64,000 nt of DNA from an uncultured Nitrospiraceae bacterium (GCA_963706325.1 CAVPLT010000007.1:224001-288000), one strand, 5' to 3'; numbered from the stretch's first letter, positions 1-27,572 are shown. Translations and numbers: made by a program. The notes: generated from the letters alone by a model not told the origin.

Positions 1-25
1 AGCCGAATGCAATGGTCGAAGCCGG

Positions 26-850
26 TTGAGTCGCATGTCCTGTCGCCGGTGGCGCCAAGCGCGCTTCAGGACAACGCATTGTCTGGTCAAATGGGCCGGG
101 TTGTGGGGGATCGTCCTATTGCTGAGCGGTTGCGCCAGTTCGCTCTACGGCTGGCAATCCCGCACCAATTCAACCCCTGTCGGCTCGTCCTTTCATGCCG
201 ATTTGCTGAAAGATCGAGCGGTGGCGCTGTTTCCCGCGGTGACGAGTCCGGGTCTTCGCGGCAACGAGGCGGCGATTCCCTTTTACCTCTGGGATGTTGT
301 TCGGAAACTGGCTCCGACATGGAAGACGATAACTGCAAGAGAGACAGTGTCACGCATCAATGGCCAAGGGTTGGCAGACGACTATATTAAGTTGATGCTG
401 GATTATGAGCCAACCTCTATCCTCAATCGGGATCTGTTAAGGAAAATCGCTGGTGCCCTCGGCGTGCGGTACGTCTTTCAGCCTCGTCTGATCTTCTTCG
501 TGCAGACGATGACGGATCGTTGGAAAGTGCCCGCTTTCGATGTGCGGATTGCGCAGACTCGTTCGAGCATTATGCGACTGTCACTGCAATTGTGGGACGT
601 GGAAAACGGTGAGCTGGTATGGGTCTCGGTTGCCGAAACAAACATGGCGAACGAAGCGGTCTCGCAGGACCCCGTGTATCTGGAGGATATTGCCCGAGCC
701 ACCCTGGGCAGCATGATGGCCGATCTCATGACAGGCAAGACCGCTTCACGATATACCCCACTAAATGAATTAGTTAATAATCTCATTCAGGAAGCCATGC
801 CCAAAGAAAAGTCAGGTCAAGAAGTCCAAAGCCAAACGACACATGAGTGA
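26..850 (+). CDS. Hypothetical lipoprotein (start uncertain)
   Basis: 274-aa ORF; hydrophobic stretch ending in lipobox LLSG-C; co-oriented with downstream genes. Confidence 0.7.
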   Translation: MSRMSCRRWRQARFRTTHCLVKWAGLWGIVLLLSGCASSLYGWQSRTNSTPVGSSFHADLLKDRAVALFPAVTSPGLRGNEAAIPFYLWDVVRKLAPTWKTITARETVSRINGQGLADDYIKLMLDYEPTSILNRDLLRKIAGALGVRYVFQPRLIFFVQTMTDRWKVPAFDVRIAQTRSSIMRLSLQLWDVENGELVWVSVAETNMANEAVSQDPVYLEDIARATLGSMMADLMTGKTASRYTPLNELVNNLIQEAMPKEKSGQEVQSQTTHE

Positions 851-887
851 TCGAAGCGAGTTCAACCAACAAACAACGGAGGTTGTC

Positions 888-1274
888 ATGTCATACCACG
901 CAAAGACATTGCTACGTATCATCGGTCTTCCGTTGATGATCGTCTGTCTCAATGGCTGCTCGACTACGGAAACCATCAATGATTTTTTGTCTTCGACAAC
1001 CCCCGGTGATTGGTATAACCGCGATGGGATGCCCAAAGCGGAACATAAAGTCGACGTATTCGTCGCGATCAATATCGATAATCTAAAAGCCGATTTGGCG
1101 AGAGGACAGGGCGAATATCTTGAAGCGCTGAGCGTGCTCCTTACGGTAGCCATTGATCGCCGGCAGGAGTTTTCGATGCGTGCGCAGAACGAATACAGCC
1201 GGCTTGCAAATCAGGATAGGGCTGCGGTTACGGAGGCCTTGGTCGCGCTCTCGCAGGGATTGCGTGACGCCTGA
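888..1274 (+). CDS. DUF3015-like lipoprotein
   Basis: GGAGG RBS before ATG 888; lipobox LNG-C; motif NLKADLARGQGEYLEAL recalls DUF3015. Confidence 0.7.
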   Translation: MSYHAKTLLRIIGLPLMIVCLNGCSTTETINDFLSSTTPGDWYNRDGMPKAEHKVDVFVAINIDNLKADLARGQGEYLEALSVLLTVAIDRRQEFSMRAQNEYSRLANQDRAAVTEALVALSQGLRDA

Positions 1275-1467
1275 TTTGCCGAGCCGCGTTTGATAGCGCG
1301 TTCAGCCTAGCGGGAATGGCGGGATGTGCCATGCCGATTGGAACCCGCCACCTGTTAGGCCCGCACATGGTGGGCCGCGTCCTCATTTTCAACAGGCACA
1401 GACCGAGAGAGATGCGGATGAACAGACGTTTCGATTCATCGAGCGCAGCAACGAGGATGGAAATGCC

Positions 1468-1899
1468 ATGCTGAACAAATTGTTTCTGATATCCACAGTG
1501 CTCTTCTCGACACTCCTCATGGCCGGTTGCGCTGAGATGCAGTCGATGGGCGGTTCAGATGTATTGATGAAAATGCTCACGAGTCAACTGGGCGTGACGA
1601 GTGATCAAGCGAAGGGTGGGGTCGGGTCTGAACTCACCCTGGCGAAGGAAAAGTTGCCGAGCACGGATTTCAATGCACTGGCCAAGGCTATTCCGGGGTC
1701 CGATACCTATATGAAAGCAGCGAAGGACCTCGGTGCGGTGACTGGCCCCCTTGGAGATAAGGCAGGGTTACAGTCCGCTTTTCAGCGCTTGGGAATGCAG
1801 TCGGGAATGGTGGACAAGTTTTCGGGTCTCCTGTCGGACTTTGCCGGGAAGATGGGAGGGGAGCCAGTCAAGAATGCTTTGGCCGCGGTACTGAAGTAA
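1468..1899 (+). CDS. DUF2780-like lipoprotein
   Basis: Lipobox LMAG-C; LTSQLGVTSDQAKGGVG...AIPG pattern typical of DUF2780. Confidence 0.75.
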   Translation: MLNKLFLISTVLFSTLLMAGCAEMQSMGGSDVLMKMLTSQLGVTSDQAKGGVGSELTLAKEKLPSTDFNALAKAIPGSDTYMKAAKDLGAVTGPLGDKAGLQSAFQRLGMQSGMVDKFSGLLSDFAGKMGGEPVKNALAAVLK

Positions 1900-1960
1900 G
1901 CAACCGCTACAGCGGCGGCCGGATGATGTCTCCACATGACAGCCTAAAAAGGCGGCAAAA

Positions 1961-2461
1961 ATGAACACCTCTTCATTGGCAAACATGTCCGTTGGGTGGT
2001 CCATCCTGGTGGCCGGGATCTTTTCCGCAACGTGCGCGACAGTCCCACCCGGCATCGAGCCACCGAAGATATCCATTGCGAACATTGCGCCCAAGGACGT
2101 CGCCTTTTTTGAACAGCGCTTTGACGTCCAACTCCGAATCCAAAATCCCAATGAGAAGGAACTGAGCCTAACCGGAATGCGATTCGAGATCGACCTGAAC
2201 GAAAAAGAATTTGCCTACGGCATGACCGGGGAGAAGGTGATCGTGCCTCGCTTTGGCTCACAGGTCGTCAACGTCGAGGTCATCACCGGCCTCAGCAGTT
2301 TTCTCCGTCAGATACAGGAATTGAATAAGACGGGTACCGGTAAGATTCGCTATCGCATCAAAGGCACAGCGTTTGTGGACAGCCCTGGCATTTTCAAGCT
2401 GCCGTTCGATGAAAAGGATGAAATCGATCTTGGCTTCGCCCAGGCGTCTGAGCAGCAATAG
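1961..2461 (+). CDS. LEA type 2 / WHy family (lipo)protein
   Basis: LRIQNPN motif, beta-rich, N-terminal signal with Cys. Confidence 0.8.
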   Translation: MNTSSLANMSVGWSILVAGIFSATCATVPPGIEPPKISIANIAPKDVAFFEQRFDVQLRIQNPNEKELSLTGMRFEIDLNEKEFAYGMTGEKVIVPRFGSQVVNVEVITGLSSFLRQIQELNKTGTGKIRYRIKGTAFVDSPGIFKLPFDEKDEIDLGFAQASEQQ

Positions 2462-2625
2462 CTCCTCAAGAGGCACACGTCATGACCGGCGGAACAAGGA
2501 TGAGTCCGGCAGGTGCGGCCGCACTCATGTCGGTATTGGGCAATATACTGAATACTGATGATCGCAGCTGGTCGGACATGACGTTCATACAAAGGGATTC
2601 TCAGGATAAAATTCTCCTGACGCTC

Positions 2626-2657
2626 AGACACGGATTCAAATCCCGTTGGGGCCACTA
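2626..2657 (+). mobile_element. Degenerate tRNA 3' fragment (tRNA-Glu-like); probable att site
   Basis: AGACACGGA-TTCAAAT-CCCGT-TGGGGCC-ACTA = T-arm (one mismatch) plus acceptor 3' strand; no 5' half upstream; next to integrase remnant. Confidence 0.7.
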
Positions 2658-2730
2658 ACTTTTTCCCTGCAGTTGGCAACGACCGCCGATTCACATCCCG
2701 CCATTGCGCCAAATTTGTGATAGTCACCTT

Positions 2731-3100
2731 TTAAAACCTGTACGCTTCCCGCACATTCTCCGGCGCGAGGTGCGCATATCGCTGGATCATCCGTCCGTCA
2801 CGATGGCCAAGCAACCGTTGCACCCTGTAGAGATCCACTCCTCGCTGCAGGAGCGCAGGGGCGAAGGTGTGCCGTAGGTCGTGAAAGCGGAAGTTCGTCA
2901 CCACCAACGGACTCACAGGCTTGCCGAAAGGCCGTCGTCACCATGTCCGGTGTGACCGGTTCCCTGTCCGGAGTGGTTTGAAGAAACACGGAACCGATCG
3001 CTAACGGTCGACAGGGTTTTAGGACTTCCATGGGCTCCTTCGCGGGATTGCATGGGGAATGCCCACCTGTCAATTGTGACAGTTCCTTTTTTTTTCTGCC
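2731..3100 (-). pseudogene. Tyrosine recombinase/integrase remnant (C-terminal part, frameshifted)
   Basis: FRFHDLRHT...LLGH...RYAH in 2731-2916; preceding part (VTPDMVTTAFRQACE) in another frame; N-terminal domains absent. Confidence 0.85.
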
Positions 3101-3139
3101 TTAGTAACATCCCCACCGACATTTACCTCGCTTAAGTAC

Positions 3140-3217
3140 AATTCAATCCGCGTTGCGCGCGCGATGGAGAATATCGGTGAGAAGTTGGGTCTGAACCCGT
3201 TTAGCCCGGCCAATTGA
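3140..3217 (+). pseudogene. glsA: Glutaminase A-like C-terminal remnant
   Basis: Manual translation NSIRVARAMENIGEKLGLNPFSPAN* resembles glutaminase C-termini (GNSVR...LGxNxF); only 25 aa. Confidence 0.45.
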
Positions 3218-3260
3218 GGTTCATCCTTACGCTTGTCCGAGGCTAGCCGGGAGGTGACTG

Positions 3261-3329
3261 ATGCAGTGGTTGGTAGAGACGCTTCAAGGTGACCCCGCGA
3301 TCGCCATCTTCCCCGCTCTAGCTCTGGGT
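3261..3329 (+). pseudogene. aspT: Aspartate:alanine antiporter-like N-terminal remnant
   Basis: GGAGGT RBS then MQWLVETLQGDPAIAIFPALALG, resembling AspT N-termini; truncated. Confidence 0.55.
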
Positions 3330-3516
3330 TGCTGTTGTTCGCTCGTCTCGCACCGGCAGTGTGGTCACCGCTCGGAACGTCGAACTGAATGACGACGAAC
3401 TTGGCTTCGTTGCCTCGATGGAGCTGAATGCCCAGAAGGCAAGGATACCCCTCATGCTGGGCCTGACCAAGACCAGCGACGCAGGGGAGTCGCAGAAACT
3501 GTTCAATACATACTGA
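3328..3516 (+). pseudogene. ansB: Type II L-asparaginase C-terminal remnant
   Basis: Manual translation VAVVRSSRTGS...NDDELGFVASMELNAQKARIPLMLGLTKT...LFNTY* matches asparaginase II C-terminal motifs (VVRSSR, LNPQKAR). Confidence 0.8.
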
Positions 3517-3539
3517 TTCGAACGGTGGACAGATCCCTC

Positions 3540-3734
3540 ATGAAGGAACCAGGACGAAGGTCTCTCCTCGCAAGCTATGCCGCGGTCTGCGTAAGTTTGG
3601 GCGCCTGCGCGTATGACCCGTCGTCTAGGGACGACTATGAGGTTCCAAAGCACATTCGAGAACGTCAGACATTGCGGCAAGACCCCTACGCCGATCCAAG
3701 ACCGAACAATGCGCCAGTCGATCCTCATTACTAG
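3540..3734 (+). CDS. Small putative lipoprotein with RR leader
   Basis: MKEPGRRSLLASYAAVCVSLGA-C: RR motif, hydrophobic stretch, lipobox; 64 aa. Confidence 0.5.
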   Translation: MKEPGRRSLLASYAAVCVSLGACAYDPSSRDDYEVPKHIRERQTLRQDPYADPRPNNAPVDPHY

Positions 3735-3800
3735 GATTTCTCAATGGGCCGGTGTCTCGTGTAGATCGACATGGGGGACAGGGGGAAAGGGAGGGCAACT

Positions 3801-5351
3801 ATGAGCGGAATAGACCGAGTTTATCCCTCGGTGAATGTGGGCCAAGCACGGACTAGCAATTCAGCGGGACAGGGGTTCGCTCAATTTCTTGCGCTCAGTC
3901 TTATGGTGATTGCGGTCAACGGCAGCCTACTGATCTTGCCAAAAGCGGTTCATTCGCAGGTAGAAGGCCCCGAACGCTCAGCCGAGTCCGATGAAGTGTT
4001 AAAAGAACGGGTGAGATCGCTGGAACGGACGGTGGAAGAGCTGAAGAAAGATCGTGGCTCACCTAAGGTCGGGGAGAGTAACGTCAAGCCCGATGAGGGG
4101 TATCAGGCTCCTACGGCGGGCACGAGCACTGAAGTTCCTGAACATCAACGTGAACGCGGAATGCTGCGTCAAGATAATTATGCTGGGCCTCGAGTCGACA
4201 ATGCTCCGTTCGATCCAAAAATGAGAGGGTTTTTTAGACTCCCCGGCACGAGCACCATGTTGCGCGTCGGAGGCTTTGCGAGAACGGACCTCATCCACGA
4301 CTTTTCACCGGCCGGAAACACTTCGAAGTTCATTCCGTCGTCCATTCCGACCGGACCGAATCCAGGAAACGACAATACGAGCCTGAGCGTAGCTCCCTCC
4401 AGGCTTAGTTTGGAACTGCGGAACAACACGAATTATGGTCCTCTGCGTATTTATTTTGAGAATGACTTCAACAACGGCCCGAACACAACAAACAGCTTCC
4501 GGCTGCGCCATTTCTATGGCCAATGGCAAAACATTCTTATCGGGCAGACGTGGTCGGCCTGGGAAGACGCGGATGTGATTCCCGACACGGTGGATTTCGA
4601 AGGGCCGAACTCATGGATTTTTAGACTCCAACCCCAAATCCGGTACACCTACGCCATGAATAAAGAGAACATTCTTGCGGCTTCTGTCGAGCAACCGAAC
4701 ACGGAGCTACCCAGCGCAGTGACTCTCCCCGGCGGCTCTGTCAACCTGAATGCGACCAGCCCGATCCCTGACTTTGTCGTCCGATACCGGCACGAGCAGG
4801 ACAAATTCCACATTCAAAATGCCTGGTTGGTTCGCTCTCTCGGGGGATTTGTCGGCGGGTCGGGAGAAAAGCAGGTCCTTGGGTGGGGCGGCATGCTGTC
4901 GGCTGCGGCCACGGTGTATGGCAAGGACAACGTGATGCTCCAAGGTATCATCGGGGAAGGGATTGCCCGCTACATCAATGACCTTGGCTCGGGTACCGCA
5001 CTCGACGTTGGCATCAGGCCGGACGGATCGATCATCGCCTTGCCGGCTTATGGAGCCTACGCCGCATATCAGCATTTTTGGGCTGAAAAATGGCGTTCGA
5101 CAGTCACCTATGGATATTTGCACGTCAATACGACCAACGTCGCAGGCCCCTCAGTCACCGGCAACTCCAACACTGCGTTCAAAAGCAGTCAGTATGCAGA
5201 AGGCAACCTGATGTACAGTCCTGGCGCAGGCTTCACAGTCGGGGCAGGGTTGCTGTGGGGGCAACACGTTGAAAAGGACGGTTCCCGCGGCGATGCGTTC
5301 CGCCTGAACTTTGTCTTGCAGTACGACCTTGTGAATCTTGGGAACTGGTGA
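3801..5351 (+). CDS. DcaP-family trimeric outer-membrane porin
   Basis: Signal peptide, coiled coil, FFRLPGTSTMLRVGGFAR, FRLRHFYG, GQTWS, VDFEGP, beta-barrel C-terminus. Confidence 0.85.
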   Translation: MSGIDRVYPSVNVGQARTSNSAGQGFAQFLALSLMVIAVNGSLLILPKAVHSQVEGPERSAESDEVLKERVRSLERTVEELKKDRGSPKVGESNVKPDEGYQAPTAGTSTEVPEHQRERGMLRQDNYAGPRVDNAPFDPKMRGFFRLPGTSTMLRVGGFARTDLIHDFSPAGNTSKFIPSSIPTGPNPGNDNTSLSVAPSRLSLELRNNTNYGPLRIYFENDFNNGPNTTNSFRLRHFYGQWQNILIGQTWSAWEDADVIPDTVDFEGPNSWIFRLQPQIRYTYAMNKENILAASVEQPNTELPSAVTLPGGSVNLNATSPIPDFVVRYRHEQDKFHIQNAWLVRSLGGFVGGSGEKQVLGWGGMLSAAATVYGKDNVMLQGIIGEGIARYINDLGSGTALDVGIRPDGSIIALPAYGAYAAYQHFWAEKWRSTVTYGYLHVNTTNVAGPSVTGNSNTAFKSSQYAEGNLMYSPGAGFTVGAGLLWGQHVEKDGSRGDAFRLNFVLQYDLVNLGNW

Positions 5352-5604
5352 CCGCTTGTCGATGTTGGGCGCCGAATCCACAGTCAGCAGGTCCACCACC
5401 GTTCATACGGGCATCGAATATTGAATTGAAACAGGCGTCGCGCCTGCCCCCTGCTCGCAGAACAGTCCTCAGGCGGTCCTGTACGAGCGCGATGGCCAGA
5501 AGGGCGCGAGCAGCTATGACGAAATACAACAGGGTAAAACCTCAATCACCTCAGTCGATGAGTTTTCCGAACCTGATTACATTGTTCAAAAAAGGGGGGC
5601 CGAC

Positions 5605-7248
5605 ATGAGCGACCATGAAAAGACGCATGCCGTTGATCTGCATTTTGGAAACCAAACACGTGAAGCCGACCGGGAAGATCCGCTTGGCCGCACGGACCGG
5701 TTAATTTCAGGTGAGATCCCACCTGGTGTCGATCGCCGCACATTCTTGATGCGGAGCGCGCTGATCGGGGCAACTGCGGTGATGTTAGGTCGCTCTGTCA
5801 GCGCCGAGGAGAGGACAGAGCGGTCCACCGCGGAGCCACCGCCGCTTTCCAAAGATCTGAACGTCGTAAAGAAGGAGAAGGGCCCCGTGATGACGACGGT
5901 GGACGAGTTTTACAAAGTCGGGCCCGGCCCATCGAGTTCACACACGATCGGCCCGATGCGCATTACCTATGATTTCTACCAACGTTGTACCAAACTGCCG
6001 GTGGACAAGCTTGAGAAGGCAACCGCGCTCAAGGTTCATTTGTATGGCAGCCTCAGCGCAACGGGCAAAGGGCATGGCACGGAACGGGCCTCGCTTGCGG
6101 GGTTGGTCGGGAAGGAGCCGGCAACCGTTGACCCCGCGTTTCTCGACAGCCTGCGCGATCAGCCTGACCAGTCGTTTCCGGTGAAGCTCGGCAGCAAGAC
6201 CCTGGATGTAAACCTCAAGGACATCGTCTATGACGCTCCCAAAGGCGACTTCCCGCATCCGAACACCATGACCTGCAAGCTCATGGCGGGTAAGGATGCA
6301 TTACTGGAGCAAGAGTACTACTCTGTGGGCGGCGGATTCATTGAATGGAAAGGATACCAGCCTCCGAAGAAAAACCCGCCGAAGTACCCGTTCTCAACCA
6401 TGAAAGAACTCCGGCACCATGCCGAGACAAACGACTTGACGATTGCCCAAGTCATCCTGGCCAACGAGATGTCCATCACTGGGAGAAGCGAGGCAGAGGT
6501 CTACGCCTTTATTGATAAAATCACGAATGCCATGGTGGCCACCGTCAAGTCAGGACTCAATGCACCGGAAGACGATGTGCTGCCTGGTCCGATTAAGCTG
6601 CATAGTAAAGCGGCAGTCGTGTACAAACGCGCCATGAATGATGAGTATCAGACGGATCGCGCCATTGGCGTCGTGTCCGCGTGGGCGCTGGCGGCGTCCG
6701 AGGAAAACGGCCGGGGGCATCTCGTCATCACCGCGCCGACAGGAGGGTCCGCGGGAGTCATGCCAGCCCTTGTCTATGGACTAAGCGAACAGCGCAAGCT
6801 TCCGGCAGAAAAGATCCGCCAGGGCATGCTTGCGGCGGCGGCGATTGGTTACCTGTGCAAACACAATGCGACGCTATCTGCAGCCGAGGGCGGCTGCCAG
6901 GCCGAAATCGGCGTTGCGTCAGCGATGGCCGCGGCCTTCCTCACGACCGCATACGATGCAAGTGCCCATGTCGTCGAGAACGCGGCGGAGTCCGCACTGG
7001 AACATCACCTGGGAATGACCTGCGACCCGGTTGCAGGATTCGTTCAGGTCCCATGCATTGAGCGATGCGCGTTCGGCGCCGTCAAGGCCTGGACCGCTTA
7101 CGCGATCGCCACCAATGAGATCGCAAGCAGACATCGGGTTGATTTGGACGCAACGATCACGGCGATGGCTCAGACCGCGAAGGAGATGAACAGCAAGTAC
7201 AAGGAAACGAGCGAAGCCGGATTAGCTCTCTCCGTGACGCTCTGCTAA
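5605..7248 (+). CDS. sdaA: Fe-S dependent L-serine ammonia-lyase with N-terminal Tat-like extension
   Basis: GPGPSSSHT, LYGSLSATGKGHGT, TAPT, GGCQAE, MTCDP, VPCIER, YKETS motifs; DRRTFL leader. Confidence 0.93.
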   Translation: MSDHEKTHAVDLHFGNQTREADREDPLGRTDRLISGEIPPGVDRRTFLMRSALIGATAVMLGRSVSAEERTERSTAEPPPLSKDLNVVKKEKGPVMTTVDEFYKVGPGPSSSHTIGPMRITYDFYQRCTKLPVDKLEKATALKVHLYGSLSATGKGHGTERASLAGLVGKEPATVDPAFLDSLRDQPDQSFPVKLGSKTLDVNLKDIVYDAPKGDFPHPNTMTCKLMAGKDALLEQEYYSVGGGFIEWKGYQPPKKNPPKYPFSTMKELRHHAETNDLTIAQVILANEMSITGRSEAEVYAFIDKITNAMVATVKSGLNAPEDDVLPGPIKLHSKAAVVYKRAMNDEYQTDRAIGVVSAWALAASEENGRGHLVITAPTGGSAGVMPALVYGLSEQRKLPAEKIRQGMLAAAAIGYLCKHNATLSAAEGGCQAEIGVASAMAAAFLTTAYDASAHVVENAAESALEHHLGMTCDPVAGFVQVPCIERCAFGAVKAWTAYAIATNEIASRHRVDLDATITAMAQTAKEMNSKYKETSEAGLALSVTLC

Positions 7249-7276
7249 ATCGAGCCGTGCGACCGATGAAGAATAG

Positions 7277-8578
7277 GTGGAAACGGGAGCAACGATCGAA
7301 GTGACAGGCAAGGAAGAACTACATAAGAGCGTGCGCATTGCTGTTATTGCCTGGATGTTGGCGGCGATTTACTATTTCTACCAGTACGCTCTTCGCTCAG
7401 CTCCAGCGGTGATGATGCCCGAACTGAGCAATGCATTCGGAATCAGCCCGCTCGCTGTCGCTTCCATTGTCGGTCTGTTCTATTACGGATACTCGCCCTT
7501 CAGTTTGGTCGCTGGAGCGGCGATGGATCGACTAGGGCCGCGTCGACTGCTGCCAGGGGCGGCGGTCATCGTCGGTATGGGGGCATTGCTGTTCGCGACA
7601 GGCAATCACAATCTCGCGAGCATCGGGAGGCTCATGCAGGGCGCAGGCGGCGTCTTTGCGCTTGTAGGCGCGATCTATATCGCGACCACAAACTTTGCGC
7701 CGTCGCGCGCCGCCACTTTGATTGGCGTCACCCAAATGTTTGGAATGGCGGGCGGATCGGCCGGACAATTCCTCGTTGGGCCACTGATTGGCAACGGGGT
7801 ACCCTGGAATGTCTTTTGGACGGCCATGGGAGTCGGCGGCTTGGTGATTGGCGCAATCTTGTTCGTGCTCCTCCCGAAAGACGAACCACCCAAACTGCCC
7901 GGGAGTGGATTCAAAAGCACCGCCAGAGGTTTCAAAACCGTGTTCAAGAACCCGCAGTCGATTTTGTGTGGCCTGATTGCCGGGTTACTGTTCATCCCGA
8001 CAACGATCTTCGACATGATTTGGGGCGTCCGTTATCTCCAGGAGGCGCATGGTCTGGAGTACGGATCGGCGGTCATGCGCTCGGCCGCGGTTCCCTTCGG
8101 TTGGATCATTGGTTGCCCCCTGCTTGGATTTATTTCCGATCGGATCGGACGGCGCAAACCGGTGATCCTCGGTGCCGCTCTCGTGCTGCTCGCCTGTCTG
8201 GCTTGGATTCTCTACGGCGAAACTGGCGTTTTCCCGCCTTATTCTGTAGGCCTCGTCGCCGGTGTCGCATCGGGCGCAGCCATGTTGCCATACACCATAA
8301 TCAAGGAGGCCAACCCGCCGCAGTTTGGTGGCACCGCCACAGGTGTGATCAATTTTTTGAATTTCACCTTTAGCGCATTGCTCGGGCCGGTCTTTACTTG
8401 GGTCCTGCAGAGTGTTTCTCGCGGAGCCCCACGAATGGAACTGGAGCATTATCAGTCCTCGTTTAGCTTGCTTCTCTACGGTGTTGCTATGGCAATCGTA
8501 TTGACCTTGTTGTTGAGAGAGACCGGACCGGCTATACGCACGGAGGCGACGAAACCCGCAAAGGGAGGCGAGAAATGA
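7277..8578 (+). CDS. MFS transporter
   Basis: ~12 hydrophobic segments; MDRLGPRR and SDRIGRRK motif A repeats. Confidence 0.92.
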   Translation: METGATIEVTGKEELHKSVRIAVIAWMLAAIYYFYQYALRSAPAVMMPELSNAFGISPLAVASIVGLFYYGYSPFSLVAGAAMDRLGPRRLLPGAAVIVGMGALLFATGNHNLASIGRLMQGAGGVFALVGAIYIATTNFAPSRAATLIGVTQMFGMAGGSAGQFLVGPLIGNGVPWNVFWTAMGVGGLVIGAILFVLLPKDEPPKLPGSGFKSTARGFKTVFKNPQSILCGLIAGLLFIPTTIFDMIWGVRYLQEAHGLEYGSAVMRSAAVPFGWIIGCPLLGFISDRIGRRKPVILGAALVLLACLAWILYGETGVFPPYSVGLVAGVASGAAMLPYTIIKEANPPQFGGTATGVINFLNFTFSALLGPVFTWVLQSVSRGAPRMELEHYQSSFSLLLYGVAMAIVLTLLLRETGPAIRTEATKPAKGGEK

Positions 8579-9507
8579 CACGGACAACCGGATCTGGAAA
8601 GTATGAACAGCTCCTTGTGCGGTGCGAAAATTTGGAGCCGGTTCCAACCGCGGTGGCACATCCCTGTGAGGCAACGGCATTGTCTGGCGCTGTCGAAGCT
8701 TTCAAGCAAAGATTGATTGTGCCACTTTTGGTTGGACCAGCCGCCAGCATCGCAAAGACAGCTGCATCAGCCGGGATCGATCTGGGCAACCTGGAAATCA
8801 TTGATGTGCCGCATAGCCATGCGGCAGCGGAGAAGGCAGTTGCGCTCATTCGAGAAGGTCGCGCTGAAATACTGATGAAGGGAAGCCTGCACACGGATGA
8901 GTTAATGGGGGCGGCTATCTCACGCGAGGGTGGACTGCGCACAGGACGTCGAATCAGCCACGTGTTCATCATGGATGTTCCGACCTATCACAAGCCTCTG
9001 CTCATTACGGATGGCGCAATCAATATTGCTCCAACTTTGGAAGACAAAGTTGATATTTGTCAGAACGCCATCGATCTTGCAATCTCGCTTGGACGGGATA
9101 GACCAAAAGTCGCGATTCTCGCCGCGGTTGAAACTGTGACGTCGAAAATGCCGGCGACGATTGACGCCGCCGCGCTCTGCAAGATGGCGGAACGCGGACA
9201 GATCAAGAACGGCTTGTTAGATGGGCCGCTGGCGTTCGACAATGCCATCAGCAAGGAAGCAGCCGAGACGAAAGGCATTCAATCCGAGGTTGCAGGCGAT
9301 CCCGACATCTTGCTCGCCCCTGATTTGGAAGCCGGCAATATGCTCGCCAAGCAATTGAGCTTTCTCGCCAATGCCGATAGTGCTGGCATGGTTCTGGGTG
9401 CGAAGGTGCCCATCATTCTCACCAGTCGTGCCGACAGTGTGCGTTCCAGAATCGCCAGTTGTGCCGTTGCGGTATTAGTGGCTCATGCACGGCGGAAGAA
9501 GCCCTAA
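8575..9507 (+). CDS. Phosphate acetyl/butyryltransferase (Ptb-type)
   Basis: LMKGSLHT, DGPLAFDNA, PDLEAGN, PIILTSRADS; ATGA overlap with MFS. Confidence 0.9.
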   Translation: MTRTTGSGKYEQLLVRCENLEPVPTAVAHPCEATALSGAVEAFKQRLIVPLLVGPAASIAKTAASAGIDLGNLEIIDVPHSHAAAEKAVALIREGRAEILMKGSLHTDELMGAAISREGGLRTGRRISHVFIMDVPTYHKPLLITDGAINIAPTLEDKVDICQNAIDLAISLGRDRPKVAILAAVETVTSKMPATIDAAALCKMAERGQIKNGLLDGPLAFDNAISKEAAETKGIQSEVAGDPDILLAPDLEAGNMLAKQLSFLANADSAGMVLGAKVPIILTSRADSVRSRIASCAVAVLVAHARRKKP

Positions 9508-9517
9508 AGGTAGGACG

Positions 9518-10695
9518 ATGGACGACTACGCGCTCGTACTCAACGCCGGCTCGTCGAGTCTGAAATTCTGCGTTTTTCAGCGACCGGCTCTCCAAGCCTG
9601 GCGCCTCGAAGCACGAGGTCAAGTCGAAGGAATCGGTACGTCGCCTCGACTATCCGTCAAGGACGCCCACGGTAGTTCGCTCGTAAATCAGGATGTCGCC
9701 GTGCGTGACGGACGCGGAGCCATCGATGCGGTCGCAGTGTGGCTGAAATCGAAGTATGGTGGCTCGCACGTGGCTGCAGTCGGTCATCGCGTCGTCCATG
9801 GCGGGACACGTTTCAGCGGACCGATAGTCGTGAATCCCGAAGTTCTCGCAGCGTTGCGCGAGTTGGTTCCACTGGCACCCCTGCATCAGCCTCACAACCT
9901 GGCGGCCATCGAAGCTGTCTCTGAACGATTGCCCAACGTGCCGCAGGTTGCCTGTTTCGATACCAGCTTCCATTGTGGACACCCCGCCGTCGCCGACCTG
10001 ATCCCCCTGCCGCATGACCTTCGGCGGTTAGGCATTCAGAGATACGGCTTTCATGGTTTGTCTTACGAATATATCGCTTCGGTCCTGCCGGAGGTCGCGC
10101 CTGAGATTGCGCACGGACGCGTCATCGTCGCACATCTCGGAAGCGGCGCCAGCTTGTGCGCGCTCCAAAATGGCAGAAGTGTCGACAGCACGCTCGGATT
10201 CACCGCATTGGATGGCCTCTGTATGGGTACGAGACCCGGCGCGCTCGACCCTGGCGTCGTATTGCATCTCTTTCAAGGTCTGAAACTCTCAGCGAAAGAA
10301 GTAGAAGCAGTGCTGTACAAAAAGTCAGGTCTTCTCGGCATCTCAGGAATCAGTAACGACATGCGCGACCTCCTGGGACGACAGGAGCCGGAGGCACGGC
10401 TTGCGGTGGACTACTTCGTCTATCGCGCTGCGAAGGAAATTGGCGCGCTCGCGGCTGTTCTACGTGGCGTCGATGCCCTGGTGTTTACCGCCGGTATCGG
10501 AGAAAACTCGCCGGAGATTCGCCAGCGAATCTGTGAGGCGTCGGCGTGGCTGGGCATCGCACTCGATGCGGGGGCAAATGCCCAAAGGTCCAAGGATTTC
10601 GACAGCCGCAGAGCAAGGTTTCTGTGTGGGTGATCCCGACCAATGAAGAACTAATGATTGCCCGACATACCGCGTCTCTGCTTGGATTGCGCTAA
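9518..10695 (+). CDS. ackA: Acetate/propionate kinase; two frameshifts near the C-terminus as given (pseudogene or sequence error)
   Basis: [45 protein letters not shown]; conserved tail GPRIST and [15 protein letters not shown] lie in two other frames. Confidence 0.88.
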
Positions 10696-10712
10696 CGAAA
10701 GGAGAGAGGGCG

Positions 10713-12979
10713 ATGGCTACATCAGTTCCGGCAAAACTCGAATCCAAGGGCGCCAAGGCAACTCGGGCTGGGAGGGGTTCAATCTAGGGCTCTGGCAAAA
10801 GGAAATCAACGTTCGCAACTTTATCCAGCAGAATTACAAACCGTATGAAGGGAATCACTCCTTTCTCGCCCCAGCAACCGACCGTACCAAGAGGATCTGG
10901 AAAATCCTCACGGACCTTTTTGTAGAAGAACGTAAAAAGGGTGTTCTGGATGTATCCCAGATTCCCAGCTCCATCACTGCACACCGTCCAGGGTACATCG
11001 ATCGTGATAATGAAGTCATCGTTGGTCTGCAAACCGAGGCGCCCCTCAAGCGCGCAATCATGCCGAATGGCGGCTTCCGCATGGTGGTCAATGCGCTCAA
11101 AACGTACGGGTACGAACCAGAGCCACATCTGGTCGAGACTTTTACCAAATACCGAAAGACTCATAACGAGGCCGTGTTCGATGCGTATACGGCAGCCGTC
11201 AAGCTGTGTCGCAGTTCGCATATCCTGACTGGACTCCCCGACGCGTACGGTCGGGGTCGAATCATCGGCGACTACCGGCGCGTCGCCCTTTACGGTGTCG
11301 CGCGTCTGATCGAGCGCAAGCAGGAGGAGAAACGCAGCATCGATGACATGATGTCGACTGACGAGATCATTCGCGACCGCGAAGAACTCAGTGAACAGAT
11401 TCGCGCGCTCGAGGAACTGCAGAAAATGGCGGCCGCTTACGGATTCGATATTTCCATTCCGGCTCGCACGTCGCGCGAGGCTGTGCAGTGGCTCTACTTC
11501 GCATACTTGGCCGCGGTGAAAGAGCAAAACGGCGCGGCGATGTCCTTGGGACGGACCTCAACGTTTCTGGACATCTATTTCGAGCGTGACCTCGCAACAG
11601 GCGCGATCACCGAACAACAGGCGCAGGAAATCATCGATGACTTCGTCATCAAACTGCGCATTGTCCGTTTTTTGCGCACGCCGGAATACGATGAACTATT
11701 CGCGGGCGACCCAACGTGGGTCACCGAATCGATTGCCGGTATGGGAGATGATGGTCGGTCGCTCGTCACCAAGACGAGCTTTCGGTATCTACAGACGCTC
11801 TACAATCTCGGTCCGGCGCCGGAACCAAATCTGACGATATGGTATTCCCCGCGACTGCCCGATGATTTTCGTAGTTTCGCGGCAAAGGTAGCGATCGATA
11901 CGAGTTCAATTCAATTCGAAAACGACGAGATCATGCGAAGTACCTGGGGAGATGATGGTGCCATCGCGTGCTGTGTCTCGCCGATGCTGGTCGGCAAGCA
12001 AATGCAGTTTTTCGGGGCTCGAGCCAACATGGCAAAGTGTTTTTTGTACGCGATCAATGGCGGTCGAGATGAACTCACCGGGAAGCAGGTGGGTCCGGCG
12101 ACCGAGCCCGTCAAGGGAGAGTATCTCGATATCGAGGACGTGATAGATCGCTTCGAAGCGACGATGGACTGGCTCGCCGGTGTCTATGTCAACGCCATGA
12201 ATATCATCCACTACATGCACGACAAATATGCCTATGAGCGGATTGAAATGGCGCTTCACGATTATGCGCCGTTGCGAACCATGGCGTTTGGCATGGCGGG
12301 TATGTCCGTGGTTGCCGACAGCCTCTCTGCTATCCGTTATGCGAAGGTCCGCGTGGTCCGCGATCAGACAGGTCTCATTACCGACTATCAAACCGAAGGC
12401 GAGTTTCCTCAGTTTGGGAACAACGACAACCGCGTCGATCAGCTCGCGACCTGGATCGTGAGCACGTTCATGAAGAAACTGAGGAAATATCCGACATACC
12501 GACAGGCACTGCACACGCAATCGATCCTGACGATCACGTCAAATGTCGTCTATGGCAAGAACACCGGCAACACGCCCGATGGGAGGCGACAGGGACAGCC
12601 GTTCGCTCCCGGCGCCAATCCAATGCATGGACGGGATAAGCATGGCGTTCATGCGTCGGCTGCATCGGTCGCCAAAATTCCCTACCGGGACGCCGCCGAC
12701 GGCATTTCACTCACGACATCGTTGGTGCCGCAGGGCCTGGGAAGAGTGGAGGAGGATCGGATCAAGAATCTGCGGGGCATGCTTGACGCGTTTTTCGGCT
12801 CGACGGGCTATCACATGAACGTCAATGTATTGAACCGTGAAACCCTGCTTGACGCCATGGACCATCCCGAGAAGTATCCAAGTTTGACGATCCGGGTCTC
12901 GGGCTATGCCGTAAACTTTGTGCGCTTGTCCCGGGAGCAACAATTGGATGTCATCAATCGCACCTTCCACGGGTCGTGA
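10713..12979 (+). CDS. pflB: Pyruvate formate-lyase; 1-nt frameshift near codon 19 as given
   Basis: [27 protein letters not shown] glycyl-radical motif; RBS-preceded ATG 10713 (MATSVPAK) is out of frame with the long ORF 10658-12979. Confidence 0.93.
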
Positions 12980-13063
12980 CGGACGCGCTAATCAGCTTTA
13001 GAGGGGATAAACGAGAACTGGGGCTCTTGCTTCACAAACCGCCGTTGAAATAGGAGACGGTCT

Positions 13064-13909
13064 ATGCCTCCTGGTGAGACACATGAGTCTGGGTCGCTCG
13101 AGGCAAACAGCCCGTTCGAGCTTCGGGTGGACAAAGGCAGTCATGTCCCCGAGTCGACTATCAAACAAGCGCTCGAGAGCGGAGATATCGGATTCATCCA
13201 CTCATTTACCACGGGATCGGCTGTCGATGGACCGGGAATGCGGGTCGTAGCATGGCTGTCGGGATGCCAGTTCCGGTGCCTGTACTGCCACAACCCTGAC
13301 ACGTGGAGCCTAAGTAACGGCATGCCTGTGCCGTTGGCACGCGCGATCGAGGAGCTTCGCAAATATCGTCACGGGCTGAAGGTGATGTCCGGCGGGTTCA
13401 CCATCAGTGGTGGCGAGCCACTCATGCAGGATCGGTTTGTCGTCAAGTTATTCACCGCTACGCATGAAATGGGGATCCACACCGCGTTGGACACCAACGG
13501 TTTTCTCGGCGATCGCCTCAGCGACGGCGAGTTGGAAAAGATCAACCTCGTGCTGCTCGATATCAAAACCTGGGACGCCCAGCGACACCGACACCTGACC
13601 GGAAAGGATGTCGGCCCGACCATCGATTTCGCGCGCCGGCTGGCTGCCCGCAAACGGCCATGTTGGCTTCGTTTCGTCCTGGTGCCGGCATTAACCGACG
13701 ACCCGCAGGACATTTCGCGAATTGCCAAGTTCGCGGCTGGGCTGGGAAATATTGAACGCGTGGATGTACTGCCTTTTCATCAGTTGGGCCAATTCAAATG
13801 GAAAGAACTGGGTCTTGATTACACTCTGGAAAATACAGCGCCCCCGTCCCATGAACTGGTTCAACGCGTGTGCGCTCAATTCGCGGCGGAAGGCCTGAAG
13901 GTATACTGA
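13064..13909 (+). CDS. pflA: Pyruvate formate-lyase activating enzyme (radical SAM)
   Basis: VDGPG, CQFRCLYCHNPDT, SGGEP, LPFHQLG; adjacent to pflB. Confidence 0.95.
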   Translation: MPPGETHESGSLEANSPFELRVDKGSHVPESTIKQALESGDIGFIHSFTTGSAVDGPGMRVVAWLSGCQFRCLYCHNPDTWSLSNGMPVPLARAIEELRKYRHGLKVMSGGFTISGGEPLMQDRFVVKLFTATHEMGIHTALDTNGFLGDRLSDGELEKINLVLLDIKTWDAQRHRHLTGKDVGPTIDFARRLAARKRPCWLRFVLVPALTDDPQDISRIAKFAAGLGNIERVDVLPFHQLGQFKWKELGLDYTLENTAPPSHELVQRVCAQFAAEGLKVY

Positions 13910-14295
13910 TAGGCTGAATTGCACCCCGACACCCGGAGCAGCGGAGAACCATCACGAATTGGTTGGAATGTCAGGGAGTAGTCTGGAGTTGGCAAGAGAT
14001 GAAGTATAAAAAAATGGAAAACCTCGCAAAATCAAGTCATTGTTAAAAATATTCTGAATCGACTCTCCTAGAACACACCTGAACGATAAGCCGTCAGCCC
14101 GTCGCCGATCCTTCCCAAAATAGCCGTCATCGCCGCTATCGCACAGGCGCAGGCGATCGGCCGTTGCGGTCGTTCCCCCTTTGCTGAACCTGTCAAATCT
14201 GACAGTATCCGACGTCACCTCTCCATGCTACCTAATGACCGGATACACTTGGTCTACTTTTGCGTGAGAACGCAATGACGAAGGAGGTTCGGGGC

Positions 14296-17028
<2,733 letters not shown>

Positions 17029-17042
17029 AGAGGGGGTGCTAT

Positions 17043-17400
17043 ATAGTATGGTCTTCACACCCGCATCTATGAGATCAACACGTGAGTTTGGCTCAAGGAG
17101 CTGAGCCGTAAGTACAATCGTTCCGTCGCACTTGAGACGGTGCCCAAGGAGGAGTGGAATACGAGAGCGGACGCGCGTGCCGACGCGGTCTGGTTCATGG
17201 GGGTGTGGGCGCGAAGTCCAGCCGGTGACGATCGCGCGGACCAATCCGTCCTTCATGAGCGATTGTACCCCGCGCTCTCACCGGTCGTACGGATCGTGAC
17301 ATCGTCGGCCCCCCCTACTGCGTCCGCCGCTATGTGGTGGATGCAGTATTAGGAGGACAGGAGGGCTTGGCCGAGGCGAGGAAGCAGCTTGCAAGGCGAG
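17043..17400 (+). pseudogene. Alpha-amylase (GH13) family N-terminal remnant
   Basis: IYEINT*VWLKELSR...DAVWFMGVWARSPAG / DIVGPPYCVRRYVVDAVLGGQEGLAEARKQLARR; in-frame stop, frameshifts, truncation. Confidence 0.75.
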
Positions 17401-17494
17401 CGGTGAGCATGTGCATGATGGGGATGAATTCAGGCGATCCCTCGCTTGTACTACAACAGATTAACCGATCGTCACCAGTGCCCAGATCAGAAAG

Positions 17495-18955
17495 GTGAGA
17501 ATGACGAGGGACAGTGCTCAGGGTTTCGTGACTCGATGTTCTGTCCGCATCCCAACCATCGGAAAGCTTTTCTATCTTTCCATCATTCTCTTGTGCGTCG
17601 GATGTCGTGCAACCCCTGTCTTCTCTGTTCCAACCACGAATACACCCGCCACGTGCATCACACCGGCCGGCGATAAGAAACTACTCGTCGGTCTCGCGGT
17701 GTCGGGCGGAGGTAGTCGCGCAGCACTATTTGCGGCAGGAGCTTTCGAGGCGTTGGGCCGAATCGCCATTGGTCCTCAGAAGCAATCGTTGCTCGAGCAG
17801 GTCTCCTACATATCAAGCGTATCGGGCGGCAGCATGGCCTCGTCCTATTTTGCGCTCAAGAAACCGTCGCGGGACGTTTCAGTTCTGAATCAAACCGGAG
17901 AGATCAGCGCTGATTATCAACGGTTTTTTAAGAGTTTCAAAGAAAGCATGGGCAAAGACTATGAGGGGTTGTTGCTGTGGCGACAACTCGCCTATTTCCG
18001 TTGGTTCAACCCCTCTTGGACCGCCCAATCTCTTGCGGAAGGCCTCAGTGAAAATTATTTGGGCGAGGCCAAGTTTACAGACCTGGCTCAGCGGGAGACA
18101 CGAGGAGATAGCCCACGCCTTCTCATCAATACCACACTTTACAATGATGGACGGCGGTTTCTTTTGAGTACGCTTCCGCGGGAGAATTCTCAGTTCGACC
18201 TGATAGGCGACCTCGAGCATTTTCCGAAGATCATGTCGCTGGAGAAGCAGGCTCTCGACCTGATGCGCGTGAAGTGGGACAGTCTCATTTCCATGGTCCC
18301 GGAGGATTTAGGGATCAATGCCTGTCCGGTCCGAATTGCCGGCGCGGTCGCCGCCTCCATGTCTTTCCCGCCGATTATCGGCCCCATTACGCTTGGTGAC
18401 GCCAAGAGAGAACGCTATTGGCACATCGGAGATGGGGGATTGTCCGATAACACCGGCGGGGAATCATTGCTGATGGTGTTTTTGAAACAACTCCAGGAAG
18501 ATCCTAACCGGCGGGCCATCATGATACTCATCGATAGCTCGTTCCCCTTTTCCGTGGGGGGAGAAGTACTAGACCATCGGAAAGAAGGTTTTAGCCTGCT
18601 TAATTACGACTACTCGAGAATTCCTTCCATTATGGAAGAACGATCCCTGGCCTATCGAGGCTTGTTTCTTTCCATAGGGCAAAGCATAGGACTGCTGCCG
18701 GGCCCGGAGCGAATTCGAGTGATCCGCTTGCGACACACCGATGCTGTATGGAATGACAATCTGAATGACCTCCCGGACTCATGCAAAAAACAGCGAATCG
18801 ACTGGAAGTCCCCGAAGGACGTCGGCAAGCACCTTTCGGGAATCGTGACCCGATTGTGGCTCGAGTCGACCTGCGATCAGGATTTGATTCTCGCCGCCGC
18901 TGCCAAAGTGGTCGCTGCAAGTGAGAGCAATATCAGGACCTTCCTGGAGAGATGA
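17495..18955 (+). CDS. Patatin-like phospholipase (probable lipoprotein; start uncertain)
   Basis: SGGGSRA, SVSGG nucleophile elbow, DGG; LCVG-C. Confidence 0.85.
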   Translation: MRMTRDSAQGFVTRCSVRIPTIGKLFYLSIILLCVGCRATPVFSVPTTNTPATCITPAGDKKLLVGLAVSGGGSRAALFAAGAFEALGRIAIGPQKQSLLEQVSYISSVSGGSMASSYFALKKPSRDVSVLNQTGEISADYQRFFKSFKESMGKDYEGLLLWRQLAYFRWFNPSWTAQSLAEGLSENYLGEAKFTDLAQRETRGDSPRLLINTTLYNDGRRFLLSTLPRENSQFDLIGDLEHFPKIMSLEKQALDLMRVKWDSLISMVPEDLGINACPVRIAGAVAASMSFPPIIGPITLGDAKRERYWHIGDGGLSDNTGGESLLMVFLKQLQEDPNRRAIMILIDSSFPFSVGGEVLDHRKEGFSLLNYDYSRIPSIMEERSLAYRGLFLSIGQSIGLLPGPERIRVIRLRHTDAVWNDNLNDLPDSCKKQRIDWKSPKDVGKHLSGIVTRLWLESTCDQDLILAAAAKVVAASESNIRTFLER

Positions 18956-18982
18956 TCCTGGACATGGCTTCATCACAGTCAG

Positions 18983-20077
18983 ATGGGAGTTCCCATTTAC
19001 CAGGAGATCATGAACAGGAGCCATCGGGGAACTGAATCGGCTAAGGTGGGCAAACGGCCGCGAGTGGCGCTGATGGCCTTCATCGTGATCGTGTCGGCCT
19101 GTGCGCTCTTAACGGCATATGTGCTGGACAGCGGGTTGACGGCGGGTCGGTCCGTGCCCGCCGGGATGAAGTGGATCGCCGGTGGGGAATTCGACATGGG
19201 CTCAGACGAGCCGATGTTCGGAGATGCGCAGCCAATCCATCGAGTGTCTGTCGACGGATTTTGGATCGATGAGACCGAGGTCACGAATGCCCAATTCGCC
19301 GAGTTTGTGAAGACGACCGGTTATCTCACTGCGGCCGAACGGATCCCGAACGCGAAAGACTATCCGGGCGCTAAGCCCGAGATGTTATTTGCCGGATCGG
19401 TGGTCTTCTCTCCCTCTGATCAGGCGGTATCGCTCCACGACCATTTTCAGTGGTGGAACTACGTGAAGGGCGCCGATTGGCGGCATCCCGAGGGGAGCGG
19501 CAGTTCCATCGAGCGACGCATGGACCATCCGGTCGTGCATATCGCGTATGAAGACGCCGAGGCCTATGCCAAGTGGGCTGCGAAACGGCTTCCCACCGAG
19601 GCGGAGTGGGAGTTTGCGGCGCGCGGTGGTCTCGCGAGGAAGAAATTTGTCTGGGGCGATTCATTCCTGCCGGACGGCCATGCCATGGCAAATACCTTCC
19701 AGGGCCACTTCCCCGATCGCAACACGCAGGAAGACGGGTACATCTCCACGTCGCCCGTGAAAGGTTTTCCCCATAACGGATATGGTCTCTATGGCATGGC
19801 CGGGAATGTCTGGGAATGGACCGCCGACTGGTACCGCCACGATACCTATATCCGTCGTGGGGCTACCCATGAACCAGTCCGCAATCCGAAAGGTCCGACC
19901 GTACAGGACAGTTTCGATCCATCCGAGCCTGGTGTCGCCAAACGAGTTCATAAAGGCGGCTCGTTCCTTTGCACCGATCAATACTGCGCGCGTTATATGC
20001 CGGGAGGACGGGGCAAGGGCGCACCCGATACCGGCACGAATCATCTGGGGTTTCGGTTGGTGCGCGATGCCGCATAA
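18983..20077 (+). CDS. Formylglycine-generating enzyme (SUMF1/FGE) family protein
   Basis: HPVVHI, RLPTEAEWEFAARGG, GNVWEW, GGSFLCTDQYCARY, HLGFR. Confidence 0.92.
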   Translation: MGVPIYQEIMNRSHRGTESAKVGKRPRVALMAFIVIVSACALLTAYVLDSGLTAGRSVPAGMKWIAGGEFDMGSDEPMFGDAQPIHRVSVDGFWIDETEVTNAQFAEFVKTTGYLTAAERIPNAKDYPGAKPEMLFAGSVVFSPSDQAVSLHDHFQWWNYVKGADWRHPEGSGSSIERRMDHPVVHIAYEDAEAYAKWAAKRLPTEAEWEFAARGGLARKKFVWGDSFLPDGHAMANTFQGHFPDRNTQEDGYISTSPVKGFPHNGYGLYGMAGNVWEWTADWYRHDTYIRRGATHEPVRNPKGPTVQDSFDPSEPGVAKRVHKGGSFLCTDQYCARYMPGGRGKGAPDTGTNHLGFRLVRDAA

Positions 20078-21529: not shown

Positions 21530-21666
21530 GTCTCCATTTCCGTTGGGCGTGTCTTCATTCACATGGGATAGCATTCCGTTGGAGAAACCGGTAGAACAGC
21601 GACGCGTCTGCCTCACACCGGTATTCAGATGCATAGGGTTAACCTGGGCGAGAGAGGAGCGGACAG

Positions 21667-23166: not shown

Positions 23167-23269
23167 TGCGCTAGCGACCAGCCGCTTATGGAGCTGCAGT
23201 CTGGCCGACCAACAAATGGACGATCCTTGACGGCCCGCTTCTTGGGAGGGGACTCTTGGAATATCTGCA

Positions 23270-24277: not shown

Positions 24278-24293
24278 TAGCTCATGTGGATCT

Positions 24294-27545: not shown

Positions 27546-27572
27546 GATTCTCTGCAGGGGGATGGACGAGTC

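Follow-up and report, generated by a model that had tools for sequence, protein, structure and literature searches.

A predicted serine-deaminating and pyruvate formate-lyase module on a genomic island of a nitrite-oxidising Nitrospira

Nitrospira species are regarded as lithotrophs that live aerobically or respire nitrate, and by what means they survive in the absence of any electron acceptor is an open question. A 64,000-nt stretch of DNA from an uncultured Nitrospiraceae bacterium (GCA_963706325.1, CAVPLT010000007.1:224001-288000), referred to here as the window and used at its full length for all unprefixed coordinates, carries a cassette of genes for an L-serine dehydratase (sdaA), a transporter of the major facilitator superfamily (MFS), a phosphate acetyltransferase (pta), an acetate kinase (ackA), a pyruvate formate-lyase (PFL, encoded by pflB) and its activating enzyme (pflA), preceded by a gene for a DcaP-family channel. 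Since PFL functions only without oxygen, the question arises what such a cassette does in a nitrifier. With moderate confidence we read sdaA to pflA as a horizontally spread six-gene module on an island of a nitrite oxidiser, which would provide redox-neutral ATP from outside serine when oxygen is lacking. The genome of the window is named G000 and its contig C7.

Seven open reading frames (ORFs) on the plus strand, spanning positions 3771-13909, are co-oriented (Table 1), in good agreement with what a first reading of the sequence alone (the sequence-only reading) had described. Genes were named by profile scores relative to curated cut-offs, given in Table 1 as bits found/cut-off. All families of the six-gene module could be assigned, and five genes pass the curated cut-offs. 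The gaps from sdaA to pflA are indeed short (28, −4, 10, 17 and 84 bp, using homologous starts and stops), spacing as would be expected of an operon; the gap between dcaP and sdaA measures 253 bp. The transacylase had been labelled Ptb, and this label was dropped: its scores with two butyryltransferase models (319.6/399 and 313/410.5) are below the cut-offs, while the Pta model is passed. PflB keeps the IACCVS motif with the Cys-Cys pair and the RVSGY motif with the radical glycine, and PflA shows CxxxCxxC at residue 68. Serine dehydratase forms pyruvate and NH3 from serine, PFL forms acetyl-CoA and formate from pyruvate, and Pta and AckA generate acetate and ATP, all without NADH. This redox-neutral chemistry, which the sequence-only reading had also proposed, follows from the family assignments. 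Promoter and terminator scans remained at chance level (4 versus 5.6 and 12 versus 11.2).

Table 1. Features of the window discussed in the text.
Feature	Position	Strand	Evidence or remark
Right-hand part of ~114-kb insertion (G000:C7:~137,990-252,033)	1..28032		flanks adjoin in relatives
att-like copy of tRNA-Glu 3' end, 48 bp	2622..2669	+	92% to C1:162208-162255
Tyrosine integrase C-terminal remnant, convergent on tRNA fragment	2731..2913	-	PF00589 E 1.1e-14
Palindrome CTGTCA-N4-TGACAG, possible regulator site	3067..3082; second copy 14190-14205		core enriched in island
aspT (aspartate:alanine antiporter), first 23 codons, scar left end	3261..3329	+	52-57% to six AspT-cluster N-termini, E 0.001-0.03
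Type II asparaginase, last 62 codons, scar right end	3328..3516	+	PF17763 E 2.3e-10; 52-61% to related-locus asparaginases
64-aa ORF, DcaP-like segment, probable second-porin remnant	3540..3731	+	61% over 36 aa to G333 DcaP
DcaP-family outer-membrane channel	3771..5351 (start 3771 or 3801)	+	PF19577 50.2/27 bits; accessory partner
sdaA, single-chain [4Fe-4S] L-serine dehydratase, twin-arginine leader	5605..7248	+	TIGR00720 407.9/345.1; 4RQO E 3e-92
MFS transporter	7277..8578	+	MFS_1; weakly like anion:cation symporters (best TIGR00893, far under cut-off)
pta, phosphate acetyltransferase, short PTA_PTB type	8575..9507	+	NF008852 516/413
ackA, acetate kinase	9518..10695	+	TIGR00016 342.9/293.4; frame broken ~10583-10608 in assembly
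pflB, pyruvate formate-lyase	10713..12979	+	TIGR01255 1139.3/994.2; homologous ATG 10713; one-base break ~10765-10767
pflA, PFL-activating radical SAM enzyme	13064..13909	+	TIGR02493 286.8/231.75

The cassette is rare in its host group. Among 371 genomes of the family (224 at least 90% complete, many incomplete) the PFL model found three carriers, namely G000 and two further genomes, G333 and G462; PflB was found in none of the 38 other genomes of the genus (0/38). All three carriers hold sdaA-MFS-pta-ackA-pflB-pflA in this order. G462 has NxrB and no AmoB match, and G333, with both NxrB and AmoB, is a complete ammonia oxidiser (comammox). A fourth genome, G494, has an SdaA with the same leader on a 4-kb contig, and no other cassette gene was matched there. 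Outside the family, the best 80 of 338 species-genome stretches encoding relatives were compared. They belong mostly to Acidobacteriota, and also to Alpha- and Gammaproteobacteria, Verrucomicrobiota, Planctomycetota and Myxococcota. The exact six-gene order was present in 25 of the 62 loci with at least 6.7 kb of downstream DNA, and pta, ackA, pflB and pflA were all present in 36 of them. An operon outside the core of the host group had been anticipated and agrees with these counts; a core or host-specific cassette was rejected, given the three carriers in the family and the same order in other phyla. Judging from these loci, the module is widespread in soil bacteria and by no means peculiar to this host.

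The sequence-only reading had included the porin as an integral part and pointed to the neighbourhood of dcaP, sdaA and pflB. The six-gene order recurs as described, but DcaP-like genes were present in only 18 of the 80 related loci. dcaP stands in front of the module only in G000 and G333, whose DcaP proteins are 79% identical at the amino acid level, and was not found beside the cassette of G462. An obligate role of dcaP was rejected on these grounds; by its distribution, it is an optional partner of the cassette.

To follow the history of the module, trees were calculated with FastTree for PflB (n = 49) and SdaA (n = 88; two sequences dropped for length). The PflBs of the three nitrifiers make up a single clade (support 1.0) nested among cassette PflBs of soil bacteria (79-86% identity), and share only 55-56% with a PFL from another family of the same phylum. 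The four leader-type SdaAs also group together (support 0.998), sister to most others. Synonymous divergence (dS) among the three genera is 0.22-0.76 for the six genes and 1.18 for DcaP, compared to 2.1-2.7 for rpoB; three atp genes gave 1.9-3.1 (G462 versus G000), and nxrB dS is also low (0.71-0.84), and some host genes are unsaturated. As the dS of the cassette is far below that of rpoB, the module moved between genera. The ratio of nonsynonymous (dN) to synonymous divergence is 0.05-0.22 for every gene pair, a sign of purifying selection. The simplest reading would be that the module entered the family once, was afterwards exchanged between genera and stayed under selection. A chimeric contig was rejected as explanation, since G333, G462 and three metagenome contigs place the cassette in Nitrospiraceae; these contigs are 97-99% identical to the G462 region over 8-15 kb, and one spans its core flanks. 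The G462 module (G462:C8 ~65,200-75,700) has an apparent transposase remnant after pflA and is presumably flanked by rsmG/parAB-like and mnmG-like genes (named from N-terminal sequences). In unrelated hosts (L013, L035, L037, L038), the sdaA module repeatedly has genes for ATP synthase subunits, SulP and PPK2 as neighbours, and an extra atpG lies near the module in G000 and G333.

The window SdaA aligns full-length with the type 2 single-chain [4Fe-4S] L-serine dehydratases (Legionella pneumophila 4RQO; E. coli SdaA, SdaB and TdcG) and passes TIGR00720. It differs from them by about 90 additional N-terminal residues ahead of the catalytic domain, with a twin-arginine motif (RR at residues 44-45) and a hydrophobic stretch, a feature that the sequence-only reading did not mention. 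The pattern [DST]RRx[FL], with a hydrophobic stretch and then an invariant Gly behind it, was found in 72 of 83 close SdaA homologues. The mean best 12-residue hydropathy of these motif-bearing proteins is 1.8, and 38 of the 72 have a lipobox. About four of the 11 homologues without the motif are truncated or carry a frameshift, and the remaining ones seem to be without it. Seven ordinary SdaA proteins from the same family and E. coli TdcG have no leader. Behind the leader, residues 93-547 align over the full length of 4RQO including its C-terminal Cys, and Cys431, Cys473, Cys484 and Cys547 (the cluster cysteines and the C-terminal Cys) are kept in 87-88 of 88 sequences. TatC was found in all three carrier hosts, each of which has two tatC genes. 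Because the twin-arginine leader is conserved, deamination by SdaA is likely periplasmic, after export by the twin-arginine translocation (Tat) system.

Signal peptides are also predicted for other deaminases in such neighbourhoods, as judged by a crude hydropathy threshold. They were called in 16 of 17 neighbouring asparaginases and, in a second set of loci centred on the MFS transporter (best 80 of at least 538), in 10 of 10 AspA proteins. AspA is normally cytoplasmic. It takes the position of sdaA before the MFS gene in 11 of 66 loci, and AspA homologues with Sec-type signal peptides often stand directly before MFS-pta (L211, L217, L219, L228, L241, L252, L255, L259, L265, L274; L042).

What does the transporter move? 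The MFS protein has no PDB relative, and its Atlas neighbours are generic only. The pta gene lies directly downstream of the MFS gene in 61 of 72 loci, and sdaA directly upstream in 27 of 70. As the transporter tracks pta rather than sdaA, and as SdaA is likely exported, transport of pyruvate or product acids appears likelier than serine uptake, which would assign the MFS protein to the acid-handling half of the cassette.

The host was suspected to be of the Nitrospira type, and the marker genes agree. At 90%, the window dcd clusters together with proteins that bear the names Nitrospira sp. and Nitrospirales. G000 has three genes of nxrA size with nxrB beside each (three nxrAB), and one NxrB matches the solved NxrB 7b04 (E 6e-176). 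AmoB was not found in G000 (96% complete), while two control genomes gave matches; a search for AmoA gave no match in G000, but no control matched either. By these markers, the host is a canonical nitrite-oxidising Nitrospira with NxrAB of the periplasmic type. A chlorite-dismutase-family protein that was tested matched coproheme decarboxylases and was of no help in placing the host. G000 also encodes three formate/nitrite channels, one of them adjoining fdhA. Only short partial matches were obtained in a hydrogenase search of G000, and coupling of formate to H2 is not claimed.

From these assignments the following route can be proposed. Serine would enter the periplasm, perhaps via DcaP, and would be deaminated there by SdaA, which would be exported by Tat in folded form with its Fe-S cluster. 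NH3 would in this way be released outside the cytoplasm, and the cell's own serine pool would be spared. The MFS transporter would import the pyruvate or swap it for product acids. Under anoxia PflA would activate PflB, leading to acetyl-CoA and formate, and Pta and AckA would produce acetate and one ATP for each serine, leaving no NADH that needs disposal. The formate could exit by a formate/nitrite channel, or could be reoxidised by the host formate dehydrogenase if nitrate or oxygen is present. This serine route would most likely be a maintenance pathway and not a growth mode; fermentative survival in a nitrifier appears plausible on this basis.

The E. coli tdcABCDEFG operon likewise combines an Fe-S serine deaminase, a keto-acid formate-lyase, an acyl kinase and a transporter. 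The cassette matches TdcG at 41%, TdcE at 59% and TdcD at 39%, while TdcA, TdcB, TdcC and TdcF gave no tblastn match in the 114-kb island that holds the cassette. Unlike tdc, the cassette has an MFS transporter without match to TdcC, a pta and a pflA of its own, and an SdaA with export leader, whereas TdcG begins straight at the catalytic domain. By gene content the cassette would work like tdc, but it is not tdc. Fermentation by Pta and AckA in Nitrospira has precedent in print, as far as the accessible text of the source goes: for comammox Nitrospira LK70 this text describes transcription of pta and ackA and proposes homoacetate fermentation for anoxic persistence, with the electron sink unsolved (PMC7078480). 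Substrate-level phosphorylation by Pta and AckA in a nitrifier is the common feature; acetyl-CoA derives there, according to the same text, from pyruvate:ferredoxin oxidoreductase, whereas PFL and SdaA would make the route redox-neutral here (PMC7078480). A separate pta-ackA pair (64-66% to the window Pta) is present in eight other genomes of the family (L182-L189), none of which has PFL.

Release of NH3 from organic nitrogen is common to the cassette and two described systems, in the portions of the papers that are accessible (PMC9765748, PMC6311188). In uropathogenic E. coli, the serine that is deaminated for acid tolerance enters through SdaC and is acted on by SdaA and SdaB (PMC9765748), and the reciprocal feeding described for Nitrospira concerns urea and cyanate, not amino acids (PMC6311188). 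Formate oxidation and reciprocal feeding in Nitrospira are covered, in the available text, by PMC6311188 and PMC5596200. Among the entries listed in searches of the open-access literature, there was no report of PFL or the six-gene module in Nitrospira and none of a Tat-exported serine dehydratase. The text of a comparative paper on Nitrospirales (PMC12342949) mentions neither fermentation nor serine, and pflB and sdaA are absent from 11 supplements; PMC12516955 has no mention of cassette-related terms, and the main text of a bioRxiv preprint none of PFL or serine.

The location of the cassette on an island, already part of the sequence-only reading, is borne out by an insertion of about 114 kb that is absent from three relatives. 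Matches to C7:137,990 and 252,033 adjoin directly in two of them, G035 and G037; in G001 the junction is displaced to the right by about 4 kb. From about 28-32 kb on, the window has broad matches throughout the 38 other genomes of the genus. For the first 20 kb, the matches listed comprise the att/integrase piece, glycosidase paralogues and a few short matches outside the cassette, with 199 weaker matches beyond the listing. No direct repeat longer than 11 bp was found at the island boundary, and the GC content (0.55-0.60) is host-like and does not mark the island. None of the 75 island ORFs scanned is an intact integrase. The integrase and att remnant, which was thought to stand directly before the cassette, is present; however, it is internal to the insertion, not at its edge, and a scar and a dcaP-like fragment (3261-3731) lie between it and the cassette. 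Two of the six AspT-cluster proteins aligned to the left end of this scar scored best to TIGR03802, and one soil contig spans the scar. By these alignments the junction of aspT and asparaginase upstream of dcaP is a deletion scar.

The palindrome core TGTCA-N4-TGACA has six of its ten genome copies in the island, which makes up 2.7% of the genome; spacers of 2-3 and 5-8 give 0-1 copies there. Further island copies of the palindrome lie at C7:155,960, 189,954, 196,702 and 222,097, and most of the six are upstream of a gene by about 350 bp or less. We do not propose the palindrome as operator of the cassette, since searches of the G333 and G462 cassette regions gave no copy and only 3 of 80 related loci have one. 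Elsewhere the island holds a cluster (G000:C7:156,064-160,397) with a Rieske protein, a copper oxidase-cytochrome c fusion (probably NirK-like by its domain layout), a cytochrome b-cytochrome c fusion and a C-terminal fragment of glucose-6-phosphate dehydrogenase. Six Ysc84 (PF04366) proteins, two DUF4136 proteins and several porins are encoded at G000:C7:138,000-224,000.

Several observations weigh against a working serine-fed route, among them the state of ackA and pflB in the window and an island block for glycogen use. No Fnr-box match with fewer than 2 mismatches to the consensus was found in the cassette region, only 2-mismatch sites. The twin-arginine motif of the window SdaA lies 43 residues in, after an acidic stretch and without lipobox, and VSA only resembles a cleavage site. 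In the sdaA-centred loci only 2 of 14 AspA proteins passed the signal threshold, and the MFS gene has no adjacent sdaA in 43 of 70 loci. The fdhA gene (G000:C4:756,947-758,948) is split in the window's assembly and whole in G001, G037, G333 and G462. Compared to G333 and G462, the window is two bases short and has one extra base near the end of ackA, and is one base short near the start of pflB. The window ackA ORF therefore ends without the conserved C-terminal PTNEE segment, which is found in another frame ending at 10695. If the breaks are real, ATP formation would be lost. Window-specific substitutions in the break patch are third-position biased (12:5:34; elsewhere 91:53:343), a pattern unlike that of random error, and a mosaic switch, at which the window turns closer to G462, falls on the same patch. 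Around this junction (~10,750-10,850) identity to G462 steps from 84-85% for sdaA to ackA up to 93% for pflB and pflA; the two halves of the module therefore have different histories.

The PTNEE segment is in frame in G462, G333, L196-L198 and contigs from soil sequencing runs, and the pflB frame is uninterrupted in G333, G462 and the soil contigs. Over the break region, contigs from 4 of 22 runs (four soil studies) were compared; no RNA run was among those listed, which bears on expression neither way. The two added ackA bases were present in all four runs, and the other ackA difference and the pflB difference agreed in three of the four. The same contigs differ from the window by 4-5% in the break patch and by 0-2% in the other listed pieces. 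Frame breaks occur elsewhere in the assembly: the third nxrA copy (C7:709,591-713,092) has a one-base break, and one core gene at ~38,660-39,570 is split by a frameshift. The background of split orthologues is 0 of 38 and 1 of 26; a frameshift count for G035 (7/48) was set aside, as its own xfp is in four pieces. Both a mixed-strain consensus and a true recombination scar would fit the breaks, and ackA and pflB look intact in the population.

If the breaks are true recombination scars, the pathway would be dead and the cassette decaying cargo in this strain. Three coding indels within about 190 bp against that background, the mosaic junction at the same place, the real deletion scar upstream and the divergence of the in-frame contigs from the window at the patch all point in this direction. 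Nevertheless, we consider decay doubtful: the in-frame bases recur in the soil runs, further listed contigs from these runs share 98-100% identity with the island, fdhA and one nxrA are also frame-split in the assembly, and the rest of the cassette has no stop codons and no raised dN. Somewhat more probable, and foremost among the alternatives although still unlikely, is a role of Pta, AckA and PFL mainly in fermenting stored glycogen through phosphoketolase and glycolysis, with SdaA as an extra source of pyruvate. An island block (G000:C7:163,658-183,787; order atpG-ppk2-fba-xfp-glgP-(GH63)-His phosphatase-pgi-tkt-glycogen-acting enzyme-ppk2) could feed these enzymes without serine. Most of it shows 86-90% identity (fba 73%) to the block that immediately follows pflA in G333 (C9 ~270,000-286,000), whose Xfp is the top match among 290 genomes (96%), and it has no ackA of its own, the only other ackA match in G000 being partial. 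Yet the six-gene module of G462 has no such block alongside, PFL, in contrast to the common Xfp (present in 211 of 291 family genomes), is rare and accompanied by sdaA in all three carriers, and pyruvate from glycolysis leaves NADH that the cassette cannot reoxidise. The best PDB matches of the block's His-phosphatase are Gpm2 and YKR043C, which we take to be sugar-bisphosphatases. The gene set of the block is similar to non-oxidative glycolysis, and glycogen could be converted by it to acetyl-phosphate at no redox cost; a second xfp, preceded by a short acetate-kinase ORF (198 aa), lies at G000:C7:382,177-385,391.

The main job of the cassette could also be to set ammonia free in the periplasm, as an acid buffer or a source of nitrogen, with the downstream genes disposing of pyruvate. 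PFL, however, needs anoxia, and nitrification acidifies under oxic conditions; moreover, the genes for asparagine and aspartate use were deleted here, whereas pta-ackA-pflB-pflA were retained under selection. We rate this explanation as improbable, a little less so than decay, because the scar shows that the locus formerly held aspT and asparaginase, because AspT, AspA, asparaginase, glutaminase or Dcu, many with signal peptides, occur in 23 of the 62 related loci that extend upstream by 8 kb or more, and because one carrier is comammox and could oxidise the NH3. Acid protection of E. coli by serine deamination, as given in the accessible part of PMC9765748, is a further argument in its favour. 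The pathway may finally run in the assimilatory direction. PFL is reversible and could join acetyl-CoA and formate to pyruvate, after activation of acetate by AckA and Pta, which would save CO2 fixation at low oxygen. The host has formate channels and formate dehydrogenase, and reverse use of Pta and AckA has been raised for comammox in the accessible text of PMC7078480. This direction leaves the pyruvate-producing SdaA at the head of the module unexplained, in the three nitrifiers that carry it as well as in many soil heterotrophs, and we regard it as the least probable of the four.

Energy conservation from outside serine without oxygen thus stays the reading that we prefer for the six-gene module. 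Its weight is limited by the few carriers in the family, the wide occurrence of the module in soil bacteria and the frame breaks in the window copy. Export of an Fe-S serine dehydratase, if true, would put a textbook cytoplasmic enzyme in a new location. The fermentation described in the accessible text of PMC7078480 is left without an electron sink, and the serine-fed PFL route would need none. A wider proposal can be put forward only tentatively, and we think it possible rather than probable: some soil Nitrospira, nitrite oxidisers as well as a comammox, may trade a working periplasmic serine-deaminating and PFL module, act as anoxic amino acid fermenters and ammonifiers, and store NH3 and formate for later oxidation, as part of a wider undescribed soil system of exported ammonia-lyases (for serine, aspartate, asparagine and glutamine) with organic-acid uptake and substrate-level phosphorylation. 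If this is true, it would represent an amino acid form of reciprocal feeding, in which NH3 and formate are later oxidised by the carriers or their partners, and a nitrifier would become a source of ammonia from amino acids.

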